Shown here in pieces: positions 5,713-64,000 of a stretch of DNA of 64,000 nucleotides (position 1 is the first letter of the stretch; every line of letters starts with the position of its first letter). The DNA is from a virus. Under the pieces are notes generated by a model. It saw only the letters and a program-made list of their open reading frames with translations. It ran no database searches and was not told the DNA's origin. The stretch covers positions 9,877-73,876 of the IMG/VR virus record IMGVR_UViG_3300043464_002365; one strand, written 5' to 3'. The position numbers and the translations under genes are program-made.

Positions 5713-6561
5713 ATGACTTTTTTTGTTGGCCATACTGGCGCAGTGAGGCTCCAAAGGGGAGGGGATAATCAGTTTGTCTCGTCAGTTGCCCCAGATGATA
5801 TCAACACATCGCTAAATCGTTTTGGCTTTGATGGTGGCGATACAAATTTAATTACGGGAGATTTTGTCTCGTTTTCAACGGACGATGCTCGTGGGCTAGA
5901 GTTTTTAGCTTCTGCGCCAGAAGCCATTAGTGCATTTGTCCACATTAACGCAGCAGGTGGTGTAAGGCTATTTCATAACTTTGCTGACGCAATCAATAAC
6001 AATCGTGCAGCGGAAATTTCTTTGTCTAGTTTTAGCGGCGAGCCGTTAAGCATTATCGTTGAAATTCAAGATACTCGACACAACACGCTTGGTTCTGTCA
6101 CTTCTTTTCAAGTGAATACTGACAGGGCTGCTCTAGACACCACTAGTCTTAGCGATGTTTTCAGGCAGCAATATTCGGCTGGCCTTCTTAGCGGCGGCGG
6201 TAGCATTGAGTGCTTGTTTAGTTATGAAACATTAAATGCAGAGGAGGTGCCTTTATTCCTTTTGCAGGTTATTAATCGCCTTGACGTGGGCAGTGCGTTT
6301 AAAGCACTGCTATCATTGTCTTCTGTTGAAAAAATTGCTTCTTTTACAGAGGAGGTTTACTACGACATTGAGGCTGTTGTCACCAGAGCTGGAGTGACGG
6401 TTACGGCGGATGCCCTTGTTGCTTGCTCTATTGACTTTGTAACCACTGGAGAGTTCAAGCTTGTAGTTGGCGCTCCGTCTGATTACATCCTTAAGGAGGA
6501 TGACGACGCCATCTATCTTGAGCAAAGCCTTGATTACCTATTGCAGGAAGTAACAGACTGA
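5713..6561 (+). CDS. tail-tube-fold structural protein with insertion
   Basis: Same LDTTSLSD...GLLSGGGS...DFVTTG pattern as the preceding gene. Confidence 0.5.
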   Translation: MTFFVGHTGAVRLQRGGDNQFVSSVAPDDINTSLNRFGFDGGDTNLITGDFVSFSTDDARGLEFLASAPEAISAFVHINAAGGVRLFHNFADAINNNRAAEISLSSFSGEPLSIIVEIQDTRHNTLGSVTSFQVNTDRAALDTTSLSDVFRQQYSAGLLSGGGSIECLFSYETLNAEEVPLFLLQVINRLDVGSAFKALLSLSSVEKIASFTEEVYYDIEAVVTRAGVTVTADALVACSIDFVTTGEFKLVVGAPSDYILKEDDDAIYLEQSLDYLLQEVTD

Positions 6562-37313: not shown

Positions 37314-37660
37314 ACAAAAAGCTTCGCCAAGCTTTTGAAAGCACCGTCCTTCTTTCTTCGGGCTCCCCATGGGAGCCTTCTTCTTTGCCTTGTTTTGTTA
37401 TCTCTGCTTGCTGCCCCTACAGTCTGCCCTTTGACCCTGCCCGTGACTCTGCTCTTCACCACGAAATGAAAGACTGGCTGGAGCTACTAGGCGCATCTCA
37501 TGAGGAGATCATTGGGCAATCGCCTGACGGAGCCTGGCAAGAGCCTTGCTGGGCTATTTATGGCATCACAGAAGGCCAAGCGAAGCGCTTGGGCAGGCTG
37601 TACCAGCAATGGGCAGTGTTTCGCTTTGACGAGCAGGGGAGAACAGTATTGGCTTGTTGA
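37310..37660 (+). CDS. DUF3293-like protein
   Basis: VISA.CPYS, G.SPDG.W.E, LGRLYQQWAVF. Confidence 0.75.
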   Translation: MNKKLRQAFESTVLLSSGSPWEPSSLPCFVISACCPYSLPFDPARDSALHHEMKDWLELLGASHEEIIGQSPDGAWQEPCWAIYGITEGQAKRLGRLYQQWAVFRFDEQGRTVLAC

Positions 37661-37746
37661 AAGCAAAATAATTGTTAGCATGGCGAAACATCGCGAGACT
37701 GGCATCTCGTGACGTTTCTAACCACTACCAAAGGAGCAGTTTGGCC

Positions 37747-38325
37747 ATGGCTGAACATAAGCATAGCAGCGTGCCTGCAGGGTTTAAGGAGATCCCTGGG
37801 TATGACGGACGCTATTTCATTAATGAGAAGGGCGACGTGTGGAGCGTAGCCAAATCAAGGCTCATGAGCCCACAGACGGACGCCACTCATCCTTATCCAT
37901 GGGTGCTACTAATAAAACCCGACAAGAAAAAGCAGCCAACTACTGTTTATTTTTTAATGCGTCTTACATGGATGCCTCATGCTCCAGGTGAGGTTGGAAT
38001 AGGGGCCAACAAGTGGTGCATCAACCACAAAGACGGAAATAAGCTCAATAGCTCATTGGATAATTTGGAATGGGTGACGAATTCTCAGAATGCTAAGCAC
38101 GCATGGGAGAATGGATTGCAAGCAAAAGGTATCGACAAGAAAAACGCTATCTTCACTTCTATTGACGTGACACTAATCCGCTTGCGAGTGAAATACGGAG
38201 AAAGTGCCTATTCAGTAGCGAAAGAATACAATTGCGCTTATGGCACTATCAAGAAAATGTGTCGCTTTGAGAGCTGGAAACATCAAGACGGTAATCTTAA
38301 CGGACGGATCCGACCAGCATCCTAA
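37747..38325 (+). CDS. NUMOD4-HNH homing endonuclease
   Basis: FKEIPGYDGRYFINEKG; INHKDGNKLN...NLEWVT.SQN..HA. Confidence 0.9.
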   Translation: MAEHKHSSVPAGFKEIPGYDGRYFINEKGDVWSVAKSRLMSPQTDATHPYPWVLLIKPDKKKQPTTVYFLMRLTWMPHAPGEVGIGANKWCINHKDGNKLNSSLDNLEWVTNSQNAKHAWENGLQAKGIDKKNAIFTSIDVTLIRLRVKYGESAYSVAKEYNCAYGTIKKMCRFESWKHQDGNLNGRIRPAS

Positions 38326-38326
38326 A

Positions 38327-38431
38327 AGACCCGGCTGGCTCGGTATCAGACCCGGCTGGCTCGGTATCAGACCCGGCTGGCTCGGTATCAGACCCGGCTG
38401 GCTCGGTATCAGACCCGGCTGGCTCGGTATC
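38327..38431 (+). repeat. 5 x 21 bp perfect tandem repeat AGACCCGGCTGGCTCGGTATC
   Basis: Read directly; followed by an AT-rich tract. Confidence 0.97.
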
Positions 38432-38534
38432 ACCTTTCTTTTATATAATTTCATCTCATCATCACATCATAACGCTGTCGTTATATGCCTTTATGCGCAT
38501 ATGCCGATATCGTTGTATGCGCATAGCCGCATAG

Positions 38535-38566
38535 TAGTACAGACGTACTATAGTACAAACGTACTA
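38535..38566. promoter_or_regulatory. two tandem TAGTAC-N4-GTACTA palindromes (cyanobacterial LexA-box-like)
   Basis: TAGTACAGACGTACTA TAGTACAAACGTACTA. Confidence 0.55.
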
Positions 38567-38660
38567 GCCTGAGGCGAGGGCGATTCCCGGTTCTCCGGTG
38601 GGGAATGGGGAAAATATACCCTACCTGGCAGCCGTAAATATAGCCTACTGGTGGCGGCCT

Positions 38661-38764
38661 TAAGAGAGGCTCACTTGTGACCATGCTAAGAGAGGCTCAC
38701 TTGTGACCATGCTAAGTGAGGCTCACTTGTGGCCGCGCTAAGTGAGGCTCACTTGTGGCCGTGC
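38661..38764 (+). repeat. 4 x 26 bp tandem repeat TAAG(A/T)GAGGCTCACTTGTG(A/G)CC..GC
   Basis: Read directly; internal palindrome AAGTGAG-G-CTCACTT. Confidence 0.95.
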
Positions 38765-38896
38765 TAGTTGTCTCCTACTGGTGACGGCCTTAAAAGTAAG
38801 CCACTGGTGGCGCGCTGATTCTTTCTGCCTACTGGCGCGATTCTGCCGAGCTTCAGTGAGACCAACTGCTGCGCGTTGCTGTCTGCCGCATGGCCT

Positions 38897-38992
38897 TAGG
38901 TGAGCCTCACTGCGCAGCACTAGGTGAGCCCTACTGTTTAGCGTTAATTGTCTCTCACTGTTTAGCGCTAGTTGAGCCCTACTGTTTAGCCC
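38897..38992 (+). repeat. 4 x 24 bp degenerate tandem repeat TAGGTGAGCC(CT)ACTGTTTAGC
   Basis: Read directly; core is the reverse complement of the 26-bp unit core. Confidence 0.85.
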
Positions 38993-39277
38993 TAAGTGTA
39001 GATATTTCAATACGTAACGCCGCTGGCAGTTATGGCGCTTCCAATGGTATGGGCGCTGATTGTTGCGGATTGTTGCAGCAGCGGATTGTCTTGCGGGTTC
39101 CGTGATACGCGCGTACGCGCGATCATCTTTCTGCTGAGCACTGCGCGCAGTCTCTCCCCATTGATAAGCCTGGCTTTTCATTGCGTCGCGGATCGGGCAC
39201 TGATAAGCGTACTGGCTAATCTCCCGCCAAATCAGCGTTGACTGATCGCCCGTGCTTATCGCAGGCGCTTTGCCCCT

Positions 39278-39324
39278 TTGCAAACGCTTGTGGGGCCTGT
39301 AGTGTTCCCTCAGAACCTTGAAAA
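39278..39324 (+). promoter_or_regulatory. sigma70-type promoter followed by rrn-type boxA
   Basis: TTGCAA-16 nt-TAGTGT; GAACCTTGAAAA at 39313-39324. Confidence 0.7.
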
Positions 39325-39359
39325 CCGAAAAGCAACGACATCGAACGCCGCAAGCGTTC

Positions 39360-39416
39360 GCGCGCGGGCCCTTTGTGGTTGCCGTGATGGCGCGGGGTCG
39401 ACTCCCGCTGTGCGCT
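39360..39416 (+). ncRNA. tRNA-like leader element
   Basis: 7-bp acceptor-like stem GCGCGCG/TGTGCGC stacked on T-arm GCGGG-GTCGACT-CCCGC. Confidence 0.55.
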
Positions 39417-39454
39417 TTGCCGGCTTTTGCCGGCCCTTCCCCTCTCTTTTATCT

Positions 39455-40207
39455 ATGGCTACCCTCTCGCACACTGCTGCGCTCCTCCTCTCCTCTCTGG
39501 AGACGGCAGAGCGTCCTAACGGTTCTCTCTTCCTCCGTCTCTCCTCCTCTGCTCCTAGTTGGGCTTCTTCTGTGATTAGAGAAGCTCACTTAGGCGAGCT
39601 CCCTAATGACTCTCGCTATGAGCTCATCAAAGACGCTCTCTCGGCTCTCTCTGATGGCGCCTTCTCTGATGAGGAGGAGGCTATCGACTCGATTGATGAG
39701 CTCTCTCTCGATCTCGTGCCACACAGAACCACGGAGCTCCTCCAGTGGTTTGCTGATCACGCGAACCGCCTCTCCTCCTGCGATGAGGCTCTAGAAAGTG
39801 GCCGCATCTCTGATCTCTGCTCCTATGAGCTCCTCTCTGAAGGGTTCCGCGTGGGAGCTGAGGAGATGCTCTCCTCGCTTATCTCCTCTCTAGAGGAGGA
39901 GCGTCTCTCAGTGTTCAATCCTGACACTGATAGTCAGCTCCTCTTAGGCGACTCCCACGGGATATATATCCCCAAGCTCTGGGCCGATGGACTGGAGGAT
40001 GAGGAGGAGGCAGAGTCCTATTCCGTCTCCTGGGAGGACGTCCTCATCTGTCAAGCTGGCCCAGACTCTGAGAACTACTGGCAAGCATGGGACGCAATCC
40101 TCCGCGATGCTCTCTGGAATGAAAACGGAGAGGATTGGCGCCTCCTGCAGAATGGCGATCTCTGGGCTGTTCGCTCTGACGTAGAGATTCCTGAGGATGC
40201 ATTCTGA
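39455..40207 (+). CDS. acidic Ocr-like (DNA mimic) protein fused to a second acidic domain
   Basis: 250 aa from MATLSH; YELIKD...IDEL..DLVPH..ELLQWFA resembles T7 gp0.3; about 53 Asp/Glu, 2 Lys. Confidence 0.6.
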   Translation: MATLSHTAALLLSSLETAERPNGSLFLRLSSSAPSWASSVIREAHLGELPNDSRYELIKDALSALSDGAFSDEEEAIDSIDELSLDLVPHRTTELLQWFADHANRLSSCDEALESGRISDLCSYELLSEGFRVGAEEMLSSLISSLEEERLSVFNPDTDSQLLLGDSHGIYIPKLWADGLEDEEEAESYSVSWEDVLICQAGPDSENYWQAWDAILRDALWNENGEDWRLLQNGDLWAVRSDVEIPEDAF

Positions 40208-40392
40208 TGAGACGGCTCTCCCTCTCCTCTCGTGAGGCTCTCTACGTCCTATGGGCTCTAGAGGAGGCTCTCCTCATCTCAGAACCTGAGGAGGAGGAGC
40301 TCCTCCTCTCTCTCATCTCTCGTTTGAACGGAGCCGCAGCCCCATTCTCCTCTGCCTCTGCCTCTCGCTCTCGCTCCTCCTCCCATGCCTGA
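40207..40392 (+). CDS. small acidic hypothetical protein
   Basis: TGATG overlap with upstream gene; same codon bias. Confidence 0.55.
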   Translation: MRRLSLSSREALYVLWALEEALLISEPEEEELLLSLISRLNGAAAPFSSASASRSRSSSHA

Positions 40393-41311
40393 CGCTCTCT
40401 CCTCTCTCTACTCTGCCTCTCCTCTCTTTACCATGCTCCTCTCCTCTCCTCTCCTTGACAACGTACGGGCTCTCTCTGGGCTCTCTGGCTCCTTTTACTT
40501 TTACGAACCACGGCAGGAGATTGTCAGCTCCTCCGACTACTGTTCTCCCATTGAATGGCGACAACCATCACCCAATGAGGCAGAGTCTCTCGGACTGGGA
40601 GAGCTCTCCTCCTACTCTTTGGAGCTCTGCCGAGAGCTCGGCTCCTCTGTCACCAAAATCACGCCAGAGGAGGCAGTAGAGCTCCTCTGTGAGCGCAAGC
40701 TATGGCAACGGTGCTCGCTCCTCTGGCTCCCGTCTTACTGTATGGGAGGAGACTACTGCGGCTCTACTCACCACGTGGCTAACGCTCGCTATCTCTTGCG
40801 CCAGTTCTCCTCGCCAGAGCTCAGAGAATGCAACGGAGGCTATGGGAGTCAAGGTGTCATTGTTGACCCTCGCTATCTCTCAGAGGAGCTCCTAGAACTC
40901 CTGCAGAGTCTTGAGAACTATCCCGTTCTCTGTGAGGATGAGCTCTCCTCCTACGAACTAGAACTACAGAACGAAACCTGGGATCACACAATCCGCAGAG
41001 AATGGGAGAGAGCTCTAGAGAGCGCTCTCTCCTCTCTCCTCTCAGACAATGAGGAGCTCGCAGAGAATGCAGTAGAGAGCCTCTCAGAGGATGCCCTGTT
41101 CTCTCTGTTCTCTCATTGTGCCGAGCTCTCTAATACCTACTGGGAGGCAGAGAGCGGAACTACTGTCTATATAGACATTGATCGCATCGCTCAGAGCCTC
41201 TCCTCAGAGCTCCTCCTAGAGCTCCTACAAGAGAGCCTCTCCTCTCAGTTCTCCCAGGCTCTACAGCCTCTCCTAGCCTCCTCTCAGCTCTCCCTGGAGC
41301 TCGCAGGCTGA
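40385..41311 (+). CDS. acidic hypothetical protein (LENYPVLCED..S.YE.E...W family); start may be 40433
   Basis: 308 aa, 2 Lys, same codon bias. Confidence 0.7.
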   Translation: MPDALSSLYSASPLFTMLLSSPLLDNVRALSGLSGSFYFYEPRQEIVSSSDYCSPIEWRQPSPNEAESLGLGELSSYSLELCRELGSSVTKITPEEAVELLCERKLWQRCSLLWLPSYCMGGDYCGSTHHVANARYLLRQFSSPELRECNGGYGSQGVIVDPRYLSEELLELLQSLENYPVLCEDELSSYELELQNETWDHTIRREWERALESALSSLLSDNEELAENAVESLSEDALFSLFSHCAELSNTYWEAESGTTVYIDIDRIAQSLSSELLLELLQESLSSQFSQALQPLLASSQLSLELAG

Positions 41312-41321
41312 TACTCCCTGG

Positions 41322-41352
41322 CAGGCTCTCTCCTCAGTGAGAGAGCCTGTTC
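41322..41352 (+). terminator. hairpin ending the acidic-gene operon
   Basis: CAGGCTCTCTC-CTCAGT-GAGAGAGCCTG-TTCT. Confidence 0.6.
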
Positions 41353-41437
41353 TCTGTGAAAAGTGGGAGCATCTCATCAATTCTCATTGAGTCTCACTTT
41401 GATTCTCAATAACGCCGCTTATTGAGAACGCTCTCCT

Positions 41438-41490
41438 TTTGTAACGTATTGTGAAACGGTAGCAACGGATGCAGACGTATGGAGTAGTGT
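41438..41490 (+). promoter_or_regulatory. HLR1-like promoter with no downstream plus-strand ORF
   Basis: TTTGTAAC-GT-ATTGTGAA, 29 nt, TAGTGT. Confidence 0.6.
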
Positions 41491-41599
41491 ACGCTAGGGA
41501 GCAGTAGAAAGGCCGCCAGTGGTTTTGGGGCTGCGGTATATGCTCCGAAATGTGGCGCTAAAAATGATACAGAATTTTCACTTTCCTAAGTATAAATAC

Positions 41600-42190
41600 T
41601 CACCAATTGCACAAATGTTCTTGTGCTTTTAATTCGCGCCACCAAGTATGTGACCGCCCTTGTCCGCGTTGGCAAGGAAGTTGTCCTGGCCACCAATATG
41701 CATTTTTAGAAACGTTTTGAGAAGCTTCTAGTACCATAAGATTTGCTGGTACATGCAAGCCACAAACGAAATCATTTTGCAATGGCACGATATGATCCAC
41801 ATGGAAAGACTGATCAGTAGCTTGTTCGAGCCATTCAGCGTGAAGATAATGAGCCTGCATTTGTTTTCTCATCTCACCCTTTCTAGCCCACGCGGGGCAA
41901 GCATTAAGTTTTTGAGCTTCTCTTAAGCGACTTTTAGCACGCTCTTTGCCAGGGTTTTCTTTTCTCCAGCGTTTAACTCTTGCTCTGACAGTTTCTGCGC
42001 AACGTTTTCCATATTCACGATTCCTAATGCGTTCTTTTTCACGATTTGCTTCTCTATAAGCTGCCCGTGATTTTTTATTGCAAGCTATGCACTCATTGCT
42101 TTTTCCGTCTGTCAGCTTGATGTCGCGATAGAACTCCGTAAATGCTTTGAATGTCCTGCATTTAACACAGGCCTTAATTCCACTCATCAC
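41600..42190 (-). CDS. HNH endonuclease with N-terminal Zn-binding motif
   Basis: C..C...C..C; HVDHIVPLQ...VCGLHVPANL...N..K. Confidence 0.88.
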   Translation of the reverse strand: MMSGIKACVKCRTFKAFTEFYRDIKLTDGKSNECIACNKKSRAAYREANREKERIRNREYGKRCAETVRARVKRWRKENPGKERAKSRLREAQKLNACPAWARKGEMRKQMQAHYLHAEWLEQATDQSFHVDHIVPLQNDFVCGLHVPANLMVLEASQNVSKNAYWWPGQLPCQRGQGRSHTWWRELKAQEHLCNW

Positions 42191-42545
42191 TTTGAAACTG
42201 CTCTGTAAATTTTAACCGGCAAAACCCAGCGGCACTATGCCGAAAGCAAGTCGAAGACGCCGCTTGAGGCATCTCTAGAGATCTCAGACAATTAGCTAGA
42301 CCAATGGAGGCGCCCAAGCGCCGTAATGACGAACAAAGGCCAGTACAAGACAATTCGCACCCTCTCTTCTCCATTGTTTTCTTTCTGTGAAAGGCGGCCC
42401 TAAGGCCGCTGCTCTAGCTTTTTTGTATTGCCACTGTTTTTTAGCCTTTCCCCGGCAGCGACCACAATTTCAGCGACCCATCACATAAGTCTGGGACAGC
42501 TTTTCTAGTACGGGCCTTTTATTTTCGCCGCTTGTCTAGATGCCT

Positions 42546-42629: not shown

Positions 42630-42792
42630 CGCTTGATGCGCTGACTGAAGGAGCGTCGTCTAGCCAGGAAGCTGCATCTAGCCCGTATGAGGCAGCAGCT
42701 TCGCTTACGTCTATCGTAACTCACGCTGTTGGGAGTTGTTTTGTCCCTGTTGTCCCGATCCTGTTATGATGAGGGCTCTCAGCGGAGCAAGC

Positions 42793-43488
42793 ATGGTCCA
42801 GCCAAAGGAAAAGAAGCGCAAAACAGAGGGCTGGGTGTATTTCGTTCAATGGGCGAGCATGCCCTATCACGTGAAAATCGGCTTCTCCACGTCACCAGGA
42901 GAACGCTTCGCATCGTTCCTCACGTCATCGCCAGACACGCTGATCGTCGTCAAGGCTTTTGAAGCCAATCGAGACGATGAGCAGGATCTTCACGAGCGTT
43001 TTGACAATTCTCGCCATGCTGGCGAATGGTTCCACCTTTCCATGGCAATCAAAAAATATCTTGAGAATGAAGCTCCTTGTCAAACGCTGGAGGCGAAGAT
43101 TAAATTTGGCAATAGGAACGAAAGTCGCATTCAGTGGACGCCAATGCGACCAGGGCTGGCTCAGTCTCTCGAAAAGCTGCATCAAGAGAAACGCCTGCCT
43201 CGCTATGTGAAGAATGCTCGAACGTTTGTGCTGTGGGCCATTGGAGACATTGAGGCTTGTGATTATTTTGCCACTTCCAATGCCATTATTCACCACGAAG
43301 CCAATCGTGACGCCTATCAAGCCAAAACTGTTTATAACCAACTGATTGCGCTGGAGGAAGAGGAAATGATTATGAAAAAGCCTGGCAAAACATTTGCCTT
43401 GCTTCCGAAAGGAGAGAGTGAGCTAATTGCAGCAGAGAAGGAGAATGCGAAGAAACGCAAAAGCGCACGAAGCTTAAGGCTTGATTAA
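42793..43488 (+). CDS. GIY-YIG (T5orf172-like) protein with C-terminal winged helix
   Basis: WVYFVQ...VKIGFS...E..LH.RF...GEWF. Confidence 0.8.
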   Translation: MVQPKEKKRKTEGWVYFVQWASMPYHVKIGFSTSPGERFASFLTSSPDTLIVVKAFEANRDDEQDLHERFDNSRHAGEWFHLSMAIKKYLENEAPCQTLEAKIKFGNRNESRIQWTPMRPGLAQSLEKLHQEKRLPRYVKNARTFVLWAIGDIEACDYFATSNAIIHHEANRDAYQAKTVYNQLIALEEEEMIMKKPGKTFALLPKGESELIAAEKENAKKRKSARSLRLD

Positions 43489-43756: not shown

Positions 43757-43819
43757 GACCGTTTGCGCTAGCCTGCCTTAGTTGATTCTCGGGGGACCAT
43801 GGTCCCCTTTTGTCGTCTT

Positions 43820-45250
43820 ATGAAGCTGAAGGAAAAGGCAAAATGTGAGCCGATTGCCCGGACGGGGCGCGTGCAAAACTGGATGGATGATCCTGATGGG
43901 CGTCTTCCGGTGAGCTGCGCCGTAATGGTCGTAGATGATTCAATGGAAGGGCCGAATGGTATTGAAGCATCATGGCGCTTCACTTCTCATGGTCTTCGTA
44001 ATGGTGCCGGCGTAGCTATTCATCTTTCCAATCTTCGTCCTCGTGGTCAAGAGAATGGTAAAGGCCTCACTGCATCTGGCCCTTGTTCTTTTGGCAAGAT
44101 TTATTCCACTCTTAATGAAGTGATTCGTCGCGGCGGGAAATTTAAGAACGGCGCGGTTGTTTTACATCTTGATTACGACCATCCCGACGCCATGGAATTT
44201 GTTTCCATGACCAGGGCGGAATTGCAATGGGCAAAGCGTGCCATCAATGTTGATGAGCAATTCTTTGAGAAGACCACTCCAGAATTTCGCGCTGCATTGA
44301 TTAAGGCGATTGGCAATGGTGATGTGTGGCTAGTAAAAAAGAAATACAACGCCAAGGGGGAACGCGTTTATTTTCAAGTTTGTCTGGAGGTAGCAATGCC
44401 TTCTCGTGGAACTTGCCTGCTTGAACATGTAAATATGGGCGCTTGCTCCATTGATAATCTTGAAGGCGCATTTATTGCTGGCATGACAGAATTGTGCCAG
44501 CTTCATGCTCGCACTGGTGTAGGCAAAAGCAGCGAATACCTTTCGCCGGAAGTTGACAAACAAGTTGGTCTCGGCGTGCTGGGCCTGGCCAATTTTCTTT
44601 CCATCCATGGAATTAGCTACAAAGAGTTTGGCGAAGCCCTTGATGCTTTCCTGATGGACGATCCACATCCCTGGGCGCATTATTGGACAGATACCGTGGC
44701 CGGAAAAGCCGTCCACGCTCTGTATAAGGGCATTGATAGCGCTGCTGACATTGCTCGTGAGCATGGAATGGAACGGGCTTTTGCCATTGCTCCTACTGCA
44801 TCATGCTCCTATCGCTACCTCGACACTCGTGGCTTTACGACAGCCCCTGAAATCGCTCCTCCCATTGATCGCCTTGTGGATCGCGACAGCGAAACCATGG
44901 GCGTTGAGCGCTTTGAATATGGTCCGGTGGAAATCGCAGAGGAGGTGGGCTGGACTGCTTTCCGTAAAGTAGCAGATGGCATTTGCACTCTTCTCCATCG
45001 CACTGGCTTGTTCCATGGTTATTCCATGAACTGGTGGTCTGACATGGTTTCTTGCGACGAAGCTTTTATCAGGGAATGGCTTGACAGTCCTCAAACTTCT
45101 GTTTATTACGCTCTTCAAGTGCAAGCTGGCACTCAGGCTAAAGACGATGTTGGAGTAGACTTGGAAGAAAGTCTGAGCGATTTCTTCTCTATTGAAGAGA
45201 CAGAAAGCTGCTCACTGGACGGAGGATTCTGCGCAGCATGTGCTGAGTAG
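43820..45250 (+). CDS. nrdA: ribonucleotide reductase alpha subunit, minimal class I (cyanophage type)
   Basis: PVSC, QVCLE, TCLL, AIAPTASCS, SVYY, C-terminal CAAC. Confidence 0.92.
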   Translation: MKLKEKAKCEPIARTGRVQNWMDDPDGRLPVSCAVMVVDDSMEGPNGIEASWRFTSHGLRNGAGVAIHLSNLRPRGQENGKGLTASGPCSFGKIYSTLNEVIRRGGKFKNGAVVLHLDYDHPDAMEFVSMTRAELQWAKRAINVDEQFFEKTTPEFRAALIKAIGNGDVWLVKKKYNAKGERVYFQVCLEVAMPSRGTCLLEHVNMGACSIDNLEGAFIAGMTELCQLHARTGVGKSSEYLSPEVDKQVGLGVLGLANFLSIHGISYKEFGEALDAFLMDDPHPWAHYWTDTVAGKAVHALYKGIDSAADIAREHGMERAFAIAPTASCSYRYLDTRGFTTAPEIAPPIDRLVDRDSETMGVERFEYGPVEIAEEVGWTAFRKVADGICTLLHRTGLFHGYSMNWWSDMVSCDEAFIREWLDSPQTSVYYALQVQAGTQAKDDVGVDLEESLSDFFSIEETESCSLDGGFCAACAE

Positions 45251-46355: not shown

Positions 46356-46424
46356 GGCCCTGAAGTGTTGGTACACGCTAGGCAGATAGCCTAGAATTCC
46401 GTGGTTCGATTCCCGGCAGCGCCT
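46356..46424 (+). tRNA. degenerate tRNA-like gene, anticodon GAT (Ile)
   Basis: Cloverleaf GGCCCTG/CAGCGCC, GTGT/ACAC, CTAGG-CAGATAG-CCTAG, GGTTCGATTCC; has mismatches, A33 and no CCA. Confidence 0.6.
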
Positions 46425-63622: not shown

Positions 63623-64000
63623 ATGTCTGAATTCCGTATGGATGATGCGGGCCTGTTCCTTGAGCGTCAGCTTGAGTACATTCGCCCCCAAGTTTTTGAA
63701 GTGCAGTATGCGGATATTAAATATCCCACTGTTCTGCCCGTCACTGCTGAAGCTGGTCCTGGCGCCCAGACCTTCACCTATCGCATCATGGACTCCACTG
63801 GTGAGTTCCGTCTGATTGCTGACGCTGCTGATGATCTGCCCCGCGCTGACATCAGCCAAGTGGAGAAGAGCATCAACATTCGTTCCTTCGGTGGTAGCTT
63901 CGGTTACACCGTACAGGAACTGCGTGCTGCTCAAATGGCCAACATCGCCCTTGAGCAGCGTCGTGCTGCTGCTGTGCGTCGTGCCTATGAAGAGAAGGTG
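63623..64000 (+). CDS. major capsid protein (DUF2184/encapsulin-like HK97 fold), truncated by window end
   Basis: MSEFRMDDAGLFLERQLEYI...DDLPRAD...GYTVQELRAA; AGGAGG RBS. Confidence 0.9.
   Translation, partial: MSEFRMDDAGLFLERQLEYIRPQVFEVQYADIKYPTVLPVTAEAGPGAQTFTYRIMDSTGEFRLIADAADDLPRADISQVEKSINIRSFGGSFGYTVQELRAAQMANIALEQRRAAAVRRAYEEKV

Follow-up and report, generated by a model that had tools for sequence, protein, structure and literature searches.

The gene 0.3 protein of phage T7, Ocr (PDB 1S7Z; Pfam PF08684), is a DNA mimic that inhibits type I restriction and BREX, and the first-step-transfer DNA of phage T5 is free of restriction sites. Genomic islands and morons are a further point of comparison for the locus described here, as are xenogeneic silencing of AT-rich DNA by nucleoid proteins such as H-NS and Lsr2 and the counter-silencers of phages. 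In Synechocystis, cyAbrB2 binds AT-rich DNA, represses transcription and excludes sigma factors, and a role against foreign DNA has been suggested for it (PMC11368403). The locus is an island at positions 39430-41350 of a 64,000-nucleotide stretch (hereafter the window), which comprises bases 9877-73876 of the 73,876-bp lake-water virus record IMGVR_UViG_3300043464_002365 in IMG/VR. Its three genes, g1, g2 and g3, are written in a narrow set of CT/TC and AG/GA steps, which we call the CT/AG dialect.

The part of g1 spanning residues 51-156 shares with Ocr its modelled fold and a strong acidity, and a homologue of g1 in a T7-like phage has the position of gene 0.3. Unlike Ocr, g1 is 250 amino acids (aa) long with an extra N-terminal part and a C-terminal domain, it belongs to a cyanobacterial siphovirus, and it is recoded into CT/AG words whereas its T7-like phage homologue is not; we know of no such recoding in T7 gene 0.3 itself. 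As in T5 and other site-avoiding phages, DNA that would be exposed before counter-defence lacks dangerous sites, the island being purged of CTCGAG, TCGA, GGCC and GGWCC, but in contrast to that DNA it is rich in GAGCTC and its variety of palindromes is not reduced. Two-step entry is a feature of T5, and the comparison here is one of sequence. The likeness to xenogeneic silencing is that two dialects of the slot in which the island lies share a threefold loss of A/T-only steps; we infer the link to this slot, cyAbrB2 being known from Synechocystis. To our knowledge, there is no known case of a phage recoding its first genes to escape silencing. Like genomic islands and morons, the cassette is a sharply bounded, mosaic, exchangeable module with homing-endonuclease genes alongside. 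It differs from them in that its composition is enforced at codon junctions, survives synonymous saturation and is found in unrelated genes, with no donor among the matches listed in IMG/VR scans. Searches of the full-text literature returned neither an account of an oligonucleotide dialect tied to a locus in early phage genes nor one of Ocr-like genes in cyanophages. We rate the locus-bound dialect as lying outside the known kinds of phenomenon.

A sharply bounded island of CT/AG words

The source genome is 49% GC and is related to Synechococcus phage S-CBS4, its nearest isolate (portal 66% identical), which lacks the island. The phages that carry it are S-CBS4-like freshwater cyanosiphoviruses, and the island is a variable cassette in a fixed slot that extends from a repeat-rich non-coding region to the RNR gene. 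Three overlapping open reading frames (ORFs) on the + strand fill 39455-41311, namely g1 (250 aa, 39455-40207), g2 (61 aa, 40207-40392) and g3 (308 aa, 40385-41311). Across the three, CTC encodes 77 of 106 leucines, GAG 63 of 76 glutamates, and TCT or TCC 74 of 98 serines, and there are four lysines in 619 codons; in g1 alone, the counts are 30 of 38 for CTC and 26 of 30 for GAG. The hexamer GAGCTC occurs 21 times in the window, with 19 copies inside the island and the other two being the only ones elsewhere in the whole genome. TCTC occurs 91 times in the island, about 12-fold above the rest of the window.

In sliding windows, nothing comparable appears elsewhere in the 73.9-kb genome. Per 500 bp, the island contains 63-86 occurrences of CTC plus GAG (genome mean 16.5, standard deviation (sd) 10) and 24-33 of AA plus TT (genome 79, sd 17), and by 4-mer entropy (6.5-7.0, compared with 7.37, sd 0.13) it is the sole outlier of the genome. 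Base fractions are A 0.19, C 0.32, G 0.24 and T 0.26. Dinucleotide odds ratios are high for CT (1.99), GA (1.87), AG (1.76) and TC (1.67) and low for TT (0.41), GT (0.44) and CG (0.57), and purine/pyrimidine switches occur at 0.36 per step versus 0.48 (sd 0.02) elsewhere. A/T-only steps (WW) account for a fraction of about 0.10-0.12 in slot DNA of this dialect, compared with 0.26-0.30 elsewhere. The borders are sharp: the bias sets in about 25 nt 5′ of the g1 ATG (around 39430) and fades 40-100 nt past the g3 stop (around 41350-41420).

Because contigs from four further lake or freshwater runs, one per study, match the island without differences, it is not an assembly artefact. The runs listed as containing the stretch included no RNA run, and the contigs reveal no molecule ends. 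Searches with the island and a neighbouring 12-kb piece against GenBank phages (blastn, megablast) gave no match. The assembly is probably permuted and may contain a small gap, and arguments from the record's termini are unsafe because a capsid-like ORF at 63623-64000 runs off the record end and end-joining gave no full gene.

An earlier note, made from the letters of the window, had counted the leucine and glutamate codons of g1, the four lysines and the 19 GAGCTC sites. These counts hold, the hand counts in g1 exactly, and the bias is stronger than the note had described. The sliding windows bear out the AA/TT depletion it described and supply the k-mer entropy check it proposed, and its statement that the bias enters flanking non-coding DNA holds for a short distance only. 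The assembly artefact that it had considered as a source is excluded by the contigs of the other runs.

Selection appears to act on oligonucleotides rather than codons

Compared with synonymous shuffles, CTC is in excess in the island (196 observed, 146 expected, sd 5, z 9.3), with 77, 41 and 78 copies in codon phases 0, 1 and 2, and the codon junctions are poor in TT (z -6.2) and CG (z -6.5). Pooling 26 orthologous genes from related loci, again against synonymous shuffles, gives junctions strongly enriched for CT (z +24.6), AG (z +18.5), TC (z +13.4) and GA (z +10.7), and for the sense-strand 4-mers CTCT (z +20.2) and AGAG (z +20.7). Depleted junctions are CG (z -17.6), GT (z -14.1), TT (z -11.5) and AT (z -7.6), as well as AC. 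The slot DNA is kept in a dialect of CT/TC and AG/GA steps, poor also in CpG and GT/AC, by selection on oligonucleotides and not on codons. Because the junction signal is strand-symmetric, with CTCT and AGAG enriched about equally, duplex DNA fits better than mRNA as its object.

Adaptation to a tRNA pool is not the cause, because the portal, protease, tail and capsid-like genes of the same phage use CTC for only 8-15% of their leucines and because a tRNA-Ile (GAT) gene at 46356-46424 is the sole tRNA gene in the window; ARAGORN found no tRNA in or near the island. The dialect alters the proteins, in which Leu, Ser, Glu and Ala take the filler positions and Lys gives way to other residues. The loss of Lys follows from the loss of the AA dinucleotide, and it affects acidic and basic proteins alike. 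Hexamers resembling a -10 element (TANNNT) number 77 where 127 are expected from codon usage (z -5.9), and the island contains 15 of them compared with about 32 per window elsewhere.

Several other sequence properties were considered. Autocorrelation and Fourier analysis of CTC revealed no 10-11 bp helical period, only lags of 2, 3 and 5, and the iteron half-sites GTGAG and CTCAC are not enriched in the island. The idea of an unstructured mRNA was dropped, as the RNA folding energy of the island matches the expectation from GC content and the RNA is more structured than shuffles (z -2.2). A tRNA-like leader found no support from ARAGORN or Rfam; in 37500-42500, the sole Rfam match was a chance snoRNA-like one below threshold.

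The dialect stays with the locus

Nine related loci carry g1-g2-g3, with 51-86% identity in g3 and 52-94% in g1, and all have a sharply bounded island with the same codon choices and the same junction excess. Leaving Leu, Glu and Ser aside, distant pairs use the same codon at a fraction of only 0.41-0.56 of their conserved residues, and invariant Leu columns are CTC in 96 of 126 cases for g1 and 123 of 190 for g3. As CTC persists though synonymous sites are near saturation, the bias is maintained and not merely inherited. The slot is mosaic, with g1 closest to that of locus L006 (94%) and g3 closest to that of L004 (83%).

Across 80 loci surveyed with the RNR gene as anchor, the slot upstream of it is variable. 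L084, which came up in a scan for clusters of GAGCTC, belongs to a related phage; it has the same HNH gene upstream, and the same slot holds a 3-kb island in the same dialect that encodes unrelated proteins, including GP88 (PF17338). This GP88 protein has CTC for 57 of 87 leucines, with CTC in all three phases (z 8.4); it contains 1.4% Lys and 10.7% Arg and is not acidic. Unrelated GP88 genes in this slot and dialect are found at L084, L137, L156, L171, L175, L180 and L286. Since these unrelated genes carry it in the same slot, the dialect is tied to the locus and not to the genes.

By GC content, the GP88 genes of the slot come in three forms: a CT dialect (0.62-0.65), a high-GC, Ala-rich form (0.66-0.69, with flanks at 0.48) and an ordinary form (0.45-0.51, with 5-7% Lys). 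Their WW fractions are 0.098, 0.102 and 0.296, respectively. The two odd dialects share only the loss of A/T steps and are opposite in TC/GA and CTC. The high-GC form lies in islands of 2-3 kb and 63-74% GC (flanks 45-50%) that encode Ala-rich GP88-family proteins in the same slot of sister phages (L198:4000-6400, L193:3200-6000, L185:1200-3200 and L138:3000-6200). A cassette of ordinary composition related to g1-g2-g3 also exists, at L169:2929-4637. It comprises an acidic ORF of 232 aa, a g3-like gene (36% identical, 5.8% Lys, CTC for 3 of 40 leucines, normal AA+TT) and a g2-like ORF of 60 aa that sits after g3, not before it.

Pattern scans of IMG/VR found such islands solely in this slot of this clade, and no donor genome of dialect composition, among the matches listed. 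We also considered 14-mers common to the Ocr-type and GP88-type islands as a shared element and rejected them as a coincidental LPEPL coding stretch.

Restriction words inside and outside the island

Certain 6-bp palindromes are strongly avoided throughout the clade. In this genome, the observed and expected counts are 0 and 20 for CAGCTG, 2 and 21.8 for GAGCTC, 0 and 8.5 for TTCGAA, 0 and 7.6 for GTGCAC, 2 and 16.5 for ATGCAT, 0 and 7.3 for CCGCGG, 1 and 9.6 for GACGTC, and 1 and 9.3 for GGGCCC. Avoidance of GAGCTC, TTCGAA, GTGCAC and CTCGAG is common to S-CBS4 and the flanks of L004-L012, and that of GAGCTC is 5- to 19-fold in the rest of the genome, in S-CBS4 and in the flanks of relatives. 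We read this pattern as the footprint of many type II systems in the hosts.

Within the islands, CTCGAG is absent from the 26 orthologous genes, compared with 53 copies expected from their own codon usage. At their 89 Leu-Glu pairs, the Glu codon is preceded by CTA, CTG, TTG, TTA or CTT, and CTC-GAG never occurs; this purge accounts for the minority Leu codons and for the TCTAGA sites. Also depleted relative to synonymous shuffles of the pooled genes are TCGA (32 vs 116), GGCC (25 vs 43) and GGWCC (3 vs 16), and not depleted are GAGCTC (109 vs 83, z +4.6), TCTAGA (24 vs 9) and GATC (79 vs 84). The contrast for GAGCTC is especially clear from the base that follows GAGCT, which is T 47, G 43, A 17 and C 2 times outside the island, and C 19 times and G once inside. 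Among Glu-Leu pairs, GAG-CTT (28) and GAG-CTG (23) prevail outside, with only two GAG-CTC, whereas GAG-CTC makes up 95 of 134 inside islands; 18 of the 19 GAGCTC sites in the island are in-frame Glu-Leu pairs.

The island has 1564 distinct 6-mers on both strands, compared with 2184 (sd 78) in other windows, and 814 distinct 5-mers compared with 934. The variety of its 6-bp palindromes is no lower (12 distinct ones vs 14.5, sd 2.9), and in total they number 37 vs 21.6. In GP88-type CT islands, 25 kb of DNA contains 96 CTCGAG and 115 GAGCTC, so the purged words are specific to the lineage. Restriction pressure acts within the island but cannot create the dialect, and the force that favours CTC outweighs a tenfold avoidance of GAGCTC.

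g1 resembles Ocr in fold

The AlphaFold2 (AF2) model of g1 (pLDDT 91.9) begins with a beta/alpha part, continues into a helical domain that resembles Ocr (residues 51-156) and ends in a C-terminal domain (residues 160-250; phrog_21544). Residues 51-156 align with the whole T7 Ocr chain 1s7z_A (103 of 106 residues, root-mean-square deviation 2.9 Å, 13% aligned identity) at Z 7.9, a value within the range below about 13 where a match can reflect a common arrangement in helical folds. This chain is the top match among 48,161, and the runner-up has Z 4.8. A weak match in BFVD is annotated as 'OCR-like antirestriction protein' of Streptomyces phage Paedore (probability 0.97, target-normalised TM 0.58, E 0.37). 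The domain contains 25 Asp/Glu and 7 Lys/Arg, for a net charge of -18 and a computed pI of about 4 from composition only, and the whole of g1 has a net charge of -39. A two-copy complex prediction for residues 36-160 scored 0.37, with the mark at 0.42.

Sequence searches did not connect g1 to Ocr. No Pfam family, the Ocr model included, matched g1 at E <= 1, and a profile search of PDB sequences did not return Ocr. Foldseek against the PDB gave nothing at E <= 0.001, and the g1 profile found no relative in representative bacterial and archaeal genomes. The model thus depicts g1 as Ocr-like in fold, and, because there is no Pfam or PDB-sequence match, we do not place it in the Ocr sequence family.

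A homologue of the N-terminal and Ocr-like parts of g1 is encoded by the T7-like marine phage MedDCM-OCT-S28-C3. It follows a 950-bp non-coding gap and lies upstream of the RNA polymerase gene, which we take to be the position of gene 0.3 in T7. This homologue lacks the bias, with CTC for 3 of 15 leucines and GAG for 1 of 11 glutamates. We infer that the slot in this phage may be an early anti-defence operon, consisting of an Ocr-like DNA-mimic gene and two conserved partners.

The partners are less readily classified. g2 is rich in Leu, Ser and Glu, near-neutral and free of Lys, its start overlaps the g1 stop (ATGA), and it is kept in all relatives at 52-98% identity; no fold or family was recognisable for it. 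g3 (net charge -33) combines an alpha/beta core with a long, helical C-terminal portion and holds 13 of the 19 GAGCTC sites of the island. Its AF2 model has a pLDDT of 68, its best VIA-align Z is 4.9, the ESM Atlas had no usable match, a PDB profile search came back empty, and tblastn against phages gave no match. Pfam and PHROGs searches with g1-g3 returned only phrog_21544 and phrog_3906, both families of unknown function, and no DNA-binding family in g2 or g3. Data from JGI, ENA, Logan and NCBI contain more than 150 homologues for each of g1 and g3 (162 for g3) at about 50-95% identity, in which Trp, Tyr, Pro and Gly columns are well conserved, and by this conservation we regard the island ORFs as real genes. 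Among orthologues, g3 differs in length at both termini and g2 at its tail.

What the dialect may be for

Tentatively, we favour the view that the slot holds first-expressed anti-defence DNA that selection keeps free of A/T-rich words, CpG and some restriction sites. Host polymerase would transcribe the slot before any phage counter-measure exists, and the slot duplex would have shed the words through which DNA-binding factors of the host act on foreign DNA rich in A/T. As candidates we name cyAbrB2-type AT-seeking nucleoid silencers, -10-like promoter hexamers, T-run terminators and the most dangerous restriction sites. The DNA-mimic products may then disarm DNA-binding defences on behalf of the rest of the 49% GC genome, and the high-GC islands of sister phages may represent a second route to a state free of A/T words.

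Several observations weigh against this view. The dialect is not obligatory: the L169 cassette, with its g2- and g3-like genes and acidic ORF, and the L140-type cassettes with GP88 are ordinary in the same slot. The loss of A/T words leaves unexplained the excess of CTC and AGAG and the avoidance of GT/AC and CC, and it does not account for a turn to CT/AG instead of GC enrichment. At the level of junctions, the high-GC islands have no WW depletion, and they could be plain imports from high-GC phages. The island tolerates its 19 GAGCTC sites while the rest of the genome avoids this word. Furthermore, the record appears to be permuted. Finally, the AT preference of cyAbrB2 has been shown only in vivo and in one distant cyanobacterium (PMC11368403).

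Other accounts that appeal to DNA words share part of this evidence. The earlier note had proposed a reduced vocabulary that dodges restriction sites and PAMs. In this account, first-expressed DNA uses few k-mers so that the words of restriction, BREX, type I and CRISPR protospacer-adjacent motif (PAM) systems become rare. The smaller number of distinct 6-mers and 5-mers, the shortfall of CTCGAG, TCGA, GGCC and GGWCC, the strong depletion of GT and the genome-wide palindrome avoidance of the clade, which makes restriction pressure real, all fit such restriction dodging. Nonetheless, palindrome variety is unchanged, GAGCTC exceeds its codon-based expectation, GP88-type CT islands are full of CTCGAG and GAGCTC, and the chance that a random 6-mer is absent moves only from 47% to 62%; the proposal is borne out in part, and as an account of the dialect we consider it doubtful. 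The second proposal of the earlier note was a dense array of binding or decoy sites, with the likeness of TCTC to the DarT target TNTC as its example. Candidate sites are GAGCTC or CTCTC/TCTC words, which would act as bait for a host restriction-modification enzyme, DarT or a phage regulator. The proposal could draw on the confinement of GAGCTC to the island and its excess over codon-based expectation, on the preference for C after GAGCT, and on the abundance of TCTC. Against these stand the lack of helical phasing, the in-frame placement of GAGCTC at a number that roughly tracks codon frequencies, palindrome sets and motifs that differ among sister islands and between cassettes, high-GC sister islands that lack CTC, and the lack of a DNA-binding family in g2 and g3. 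Moreover, surplus substrate does not titrate out an enzyme that acts catalytically, as DarT does, and we find such an array very unlikely. A related version, to which we give a low probability, treats the locus as a recoding slot: any resident gene, be it an Ocr-like mimic or, in other lineages, a GP88-family gene, would in the course of evolution be rewritten to CT/AG because the stretch is a functional object for a host or phage factor, and its clusters of GAGCTC would serve to bait or absorb a host enzyme specific for that site, an idea that arises because the rest of the clade's DNA avoids GAGCTC about tenfold. If true, it would be a counter-defence at the nucleic-acid level beside a protein DNA mimic. 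The third proposal, avoidance of Lys as insurance against tRNA-Lys nucleases, finds no support in g1 and g3, which have two Lys each (1-5 in orthologues, with only g2 having none), in the non-acidic GP88 written in the dialect, which swaps Lys for Arg, or in the Lys-rich remaining proteome.

The remaining accounts do without selection on duplex words. An imported module could keep the composition of its donor through exchange with a gene pool, with no selection on composition in this phage. The mosaic slot, the intermixing by RNR identity of phages with and without the island, the flanking homing-endonuclease genes and the high-GC islands, which look imported and lack a junction-level WW signal, are all expected of it. 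The bias nevertheless exceeds codon usage (junction z reaches 26, and CTC is up in all three phases), endures where identity has dropped to 51-62% and synonymous sites are almost saturated, appears in two unrelated cassettes and, among the matches listed in the IMG/VR scans, is confined to this slot with no donor. Simple import fits the high-GC islands and not the CT dialect, for which we judge it unlikely. These same observations, together with the low use of CTC elsewhere in the genome, uphold the earlier note in placing selection on the DNA rather than on translation. A design at the level of RNA is quite unlikely in our estimation. A transcript rich in pyrimidines and poor in A would withstand AU-directed nucleases, for example RNase E or toxin RNases, would avoid R-loops through weak hybrids of pyrimidine RNA and purine DNA, and may attract ribosomes although no Shine-Dalgarno sequence is present. 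Pyrimidines make up 58% of the sense strand, where A stands at 18.7% (25.7% elsewhere) and AA and UU at about 2.7% each (8% elsewhere); in all loci, g1 and g3 each follow a CT-rich leader that lacks a Shine-Dalgarno sequence, and the extent of the bias approximates the presumed transcription unit. The strand symmetry of the junction enrichment and the ordinary folding of the transcript speak against such a design, as does the fact that other phage mRNAs have no such protection. Likewise, the GenBank label 'Rnase E' on S-CBS4 gp086 (L014:21648-22379) is unsupported, its sole Pfam match being a GerE/LuxR helix-turn-helix. Finally, slippage-prone (CT)n or (CTC)n tracts might be kept for fast evolution or switching of anti-defence genes, in keeping with the CTC autocorrelation lags, with short CT arrays found by TRF, such as 40397-40455 (unit CTCTC), and with the length-variable ends of g2 and g3. 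Perfect tracts reach only 4-5 units, though, the longest TRF array, at 40397-40455, has 74% matches, and the bias is equal in the gap-free conserved core columns of g1 and g3 (CTC in 96 of 126 and 123 of 190). Slippage may shape the low-complexity termini, not the conserved cores, and as an origin of the dialect it is most improbable.

Selection on short DNA words would here be strong enough to rewrite protein composition, with Leu, Ser and Glu up and Lys nearly gone, and it would be attached to a genomic position and not to a gene; the slot would then show what DNA must avoid in the first minutes of infection. The locus offers a natural experiment, its cassette families each coming in a CT/AG and an ordinary version at a single place, and GP88 also in a high-GC version. 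Freshwater cyanophages, for which descriptions of anti-restriction proteins are scarce, gain an Ocr-fold protein with two conserved partners. Composition-based tools would label such an island as foreign or of low complexity and mask it, and Lys-poor, Leu/Ser-rich 'hypothetical proteins' may owe their composition to pressure at the level of DNA.

Flanking DNA and further features of the cassette

The 5′ border of the dialect is a pyrimidine-only leader, ccttcccctctcttttatct, at 39430-39454 (+ strand), which abuts the g1 ATG and has no Shine-Dalgarno sequence. A CT-rich tract precedes the g1 ATG in nine of nine loci. Downstream of g3, the flank at 41312-41420 (+ strand) is still in the dialect, and the bias ends there. 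It contains a hairpin, CAGGCTCTCTC...GAGAGAGCCTG, at 41321-41349, with TTCTCT directly after it, followed by a second hairpin, TTCTCAATAA...TTATTGAGAA. Within the genes, an 18-bp perfect palindrome, GAGGAGGAGCTCCTCCTC, lies in g2 at 40288-40305, and palindromes centred on GAGCTC sites reach 12 bp (40598-40609) and also 10 bp.

Homing-endonuclease-like genes, two HNH and one GIY-YIG/T5orf172, flank the island at 37672-38325 (+ strand), 41600-42190 (- strand) and 42736-43488 (+ strand), and they may help slot cassettes to move. The RNR gene lies downstream, at 43799-45250.

The non-coding region upstream of the cassette, at 38327-39429, is poor in AA/TT (AA+TT 44-63 per 500 bp), is not in the CT dialect and contains hairpins. 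It includes three tandem arrays: five perfect copies of a 21-bp unit (38327-38432), four copies of a 26-bp unit whose core, GTGAGGCTCAC, is palindromic (38661-38766) and three copies of a 24-bp unit (38925-38995). About 1 kb of array-bearing non-coding DNA lies upstream of the cassette in every relative, with units that differ between phages, for example 13.8 copies of 26 bp at L005 and 5.6 copies of 25 bp at L008. These arrays could be iterons, operators or packaging signals.

The leaders 5′ of g1 are otherwise unconserved, apart from paired TGATAAG and CTTATC(A/G) motifs at 39170-39260 of the window and in the leaders of L005, L007, L008 and L010; these pairs could be an operator. At L007, positions 6264-6463 upstream of the cassette contain about 17 copies of an 11-bp unit, TCCTTAACCTT. 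The occurrence of CTTAACCT at 11-bp spacing in this array presumably resembles the cyanobacterial Pho box, the site of SphR/PhoB, in which case the array would be a very large one for a host regulator.

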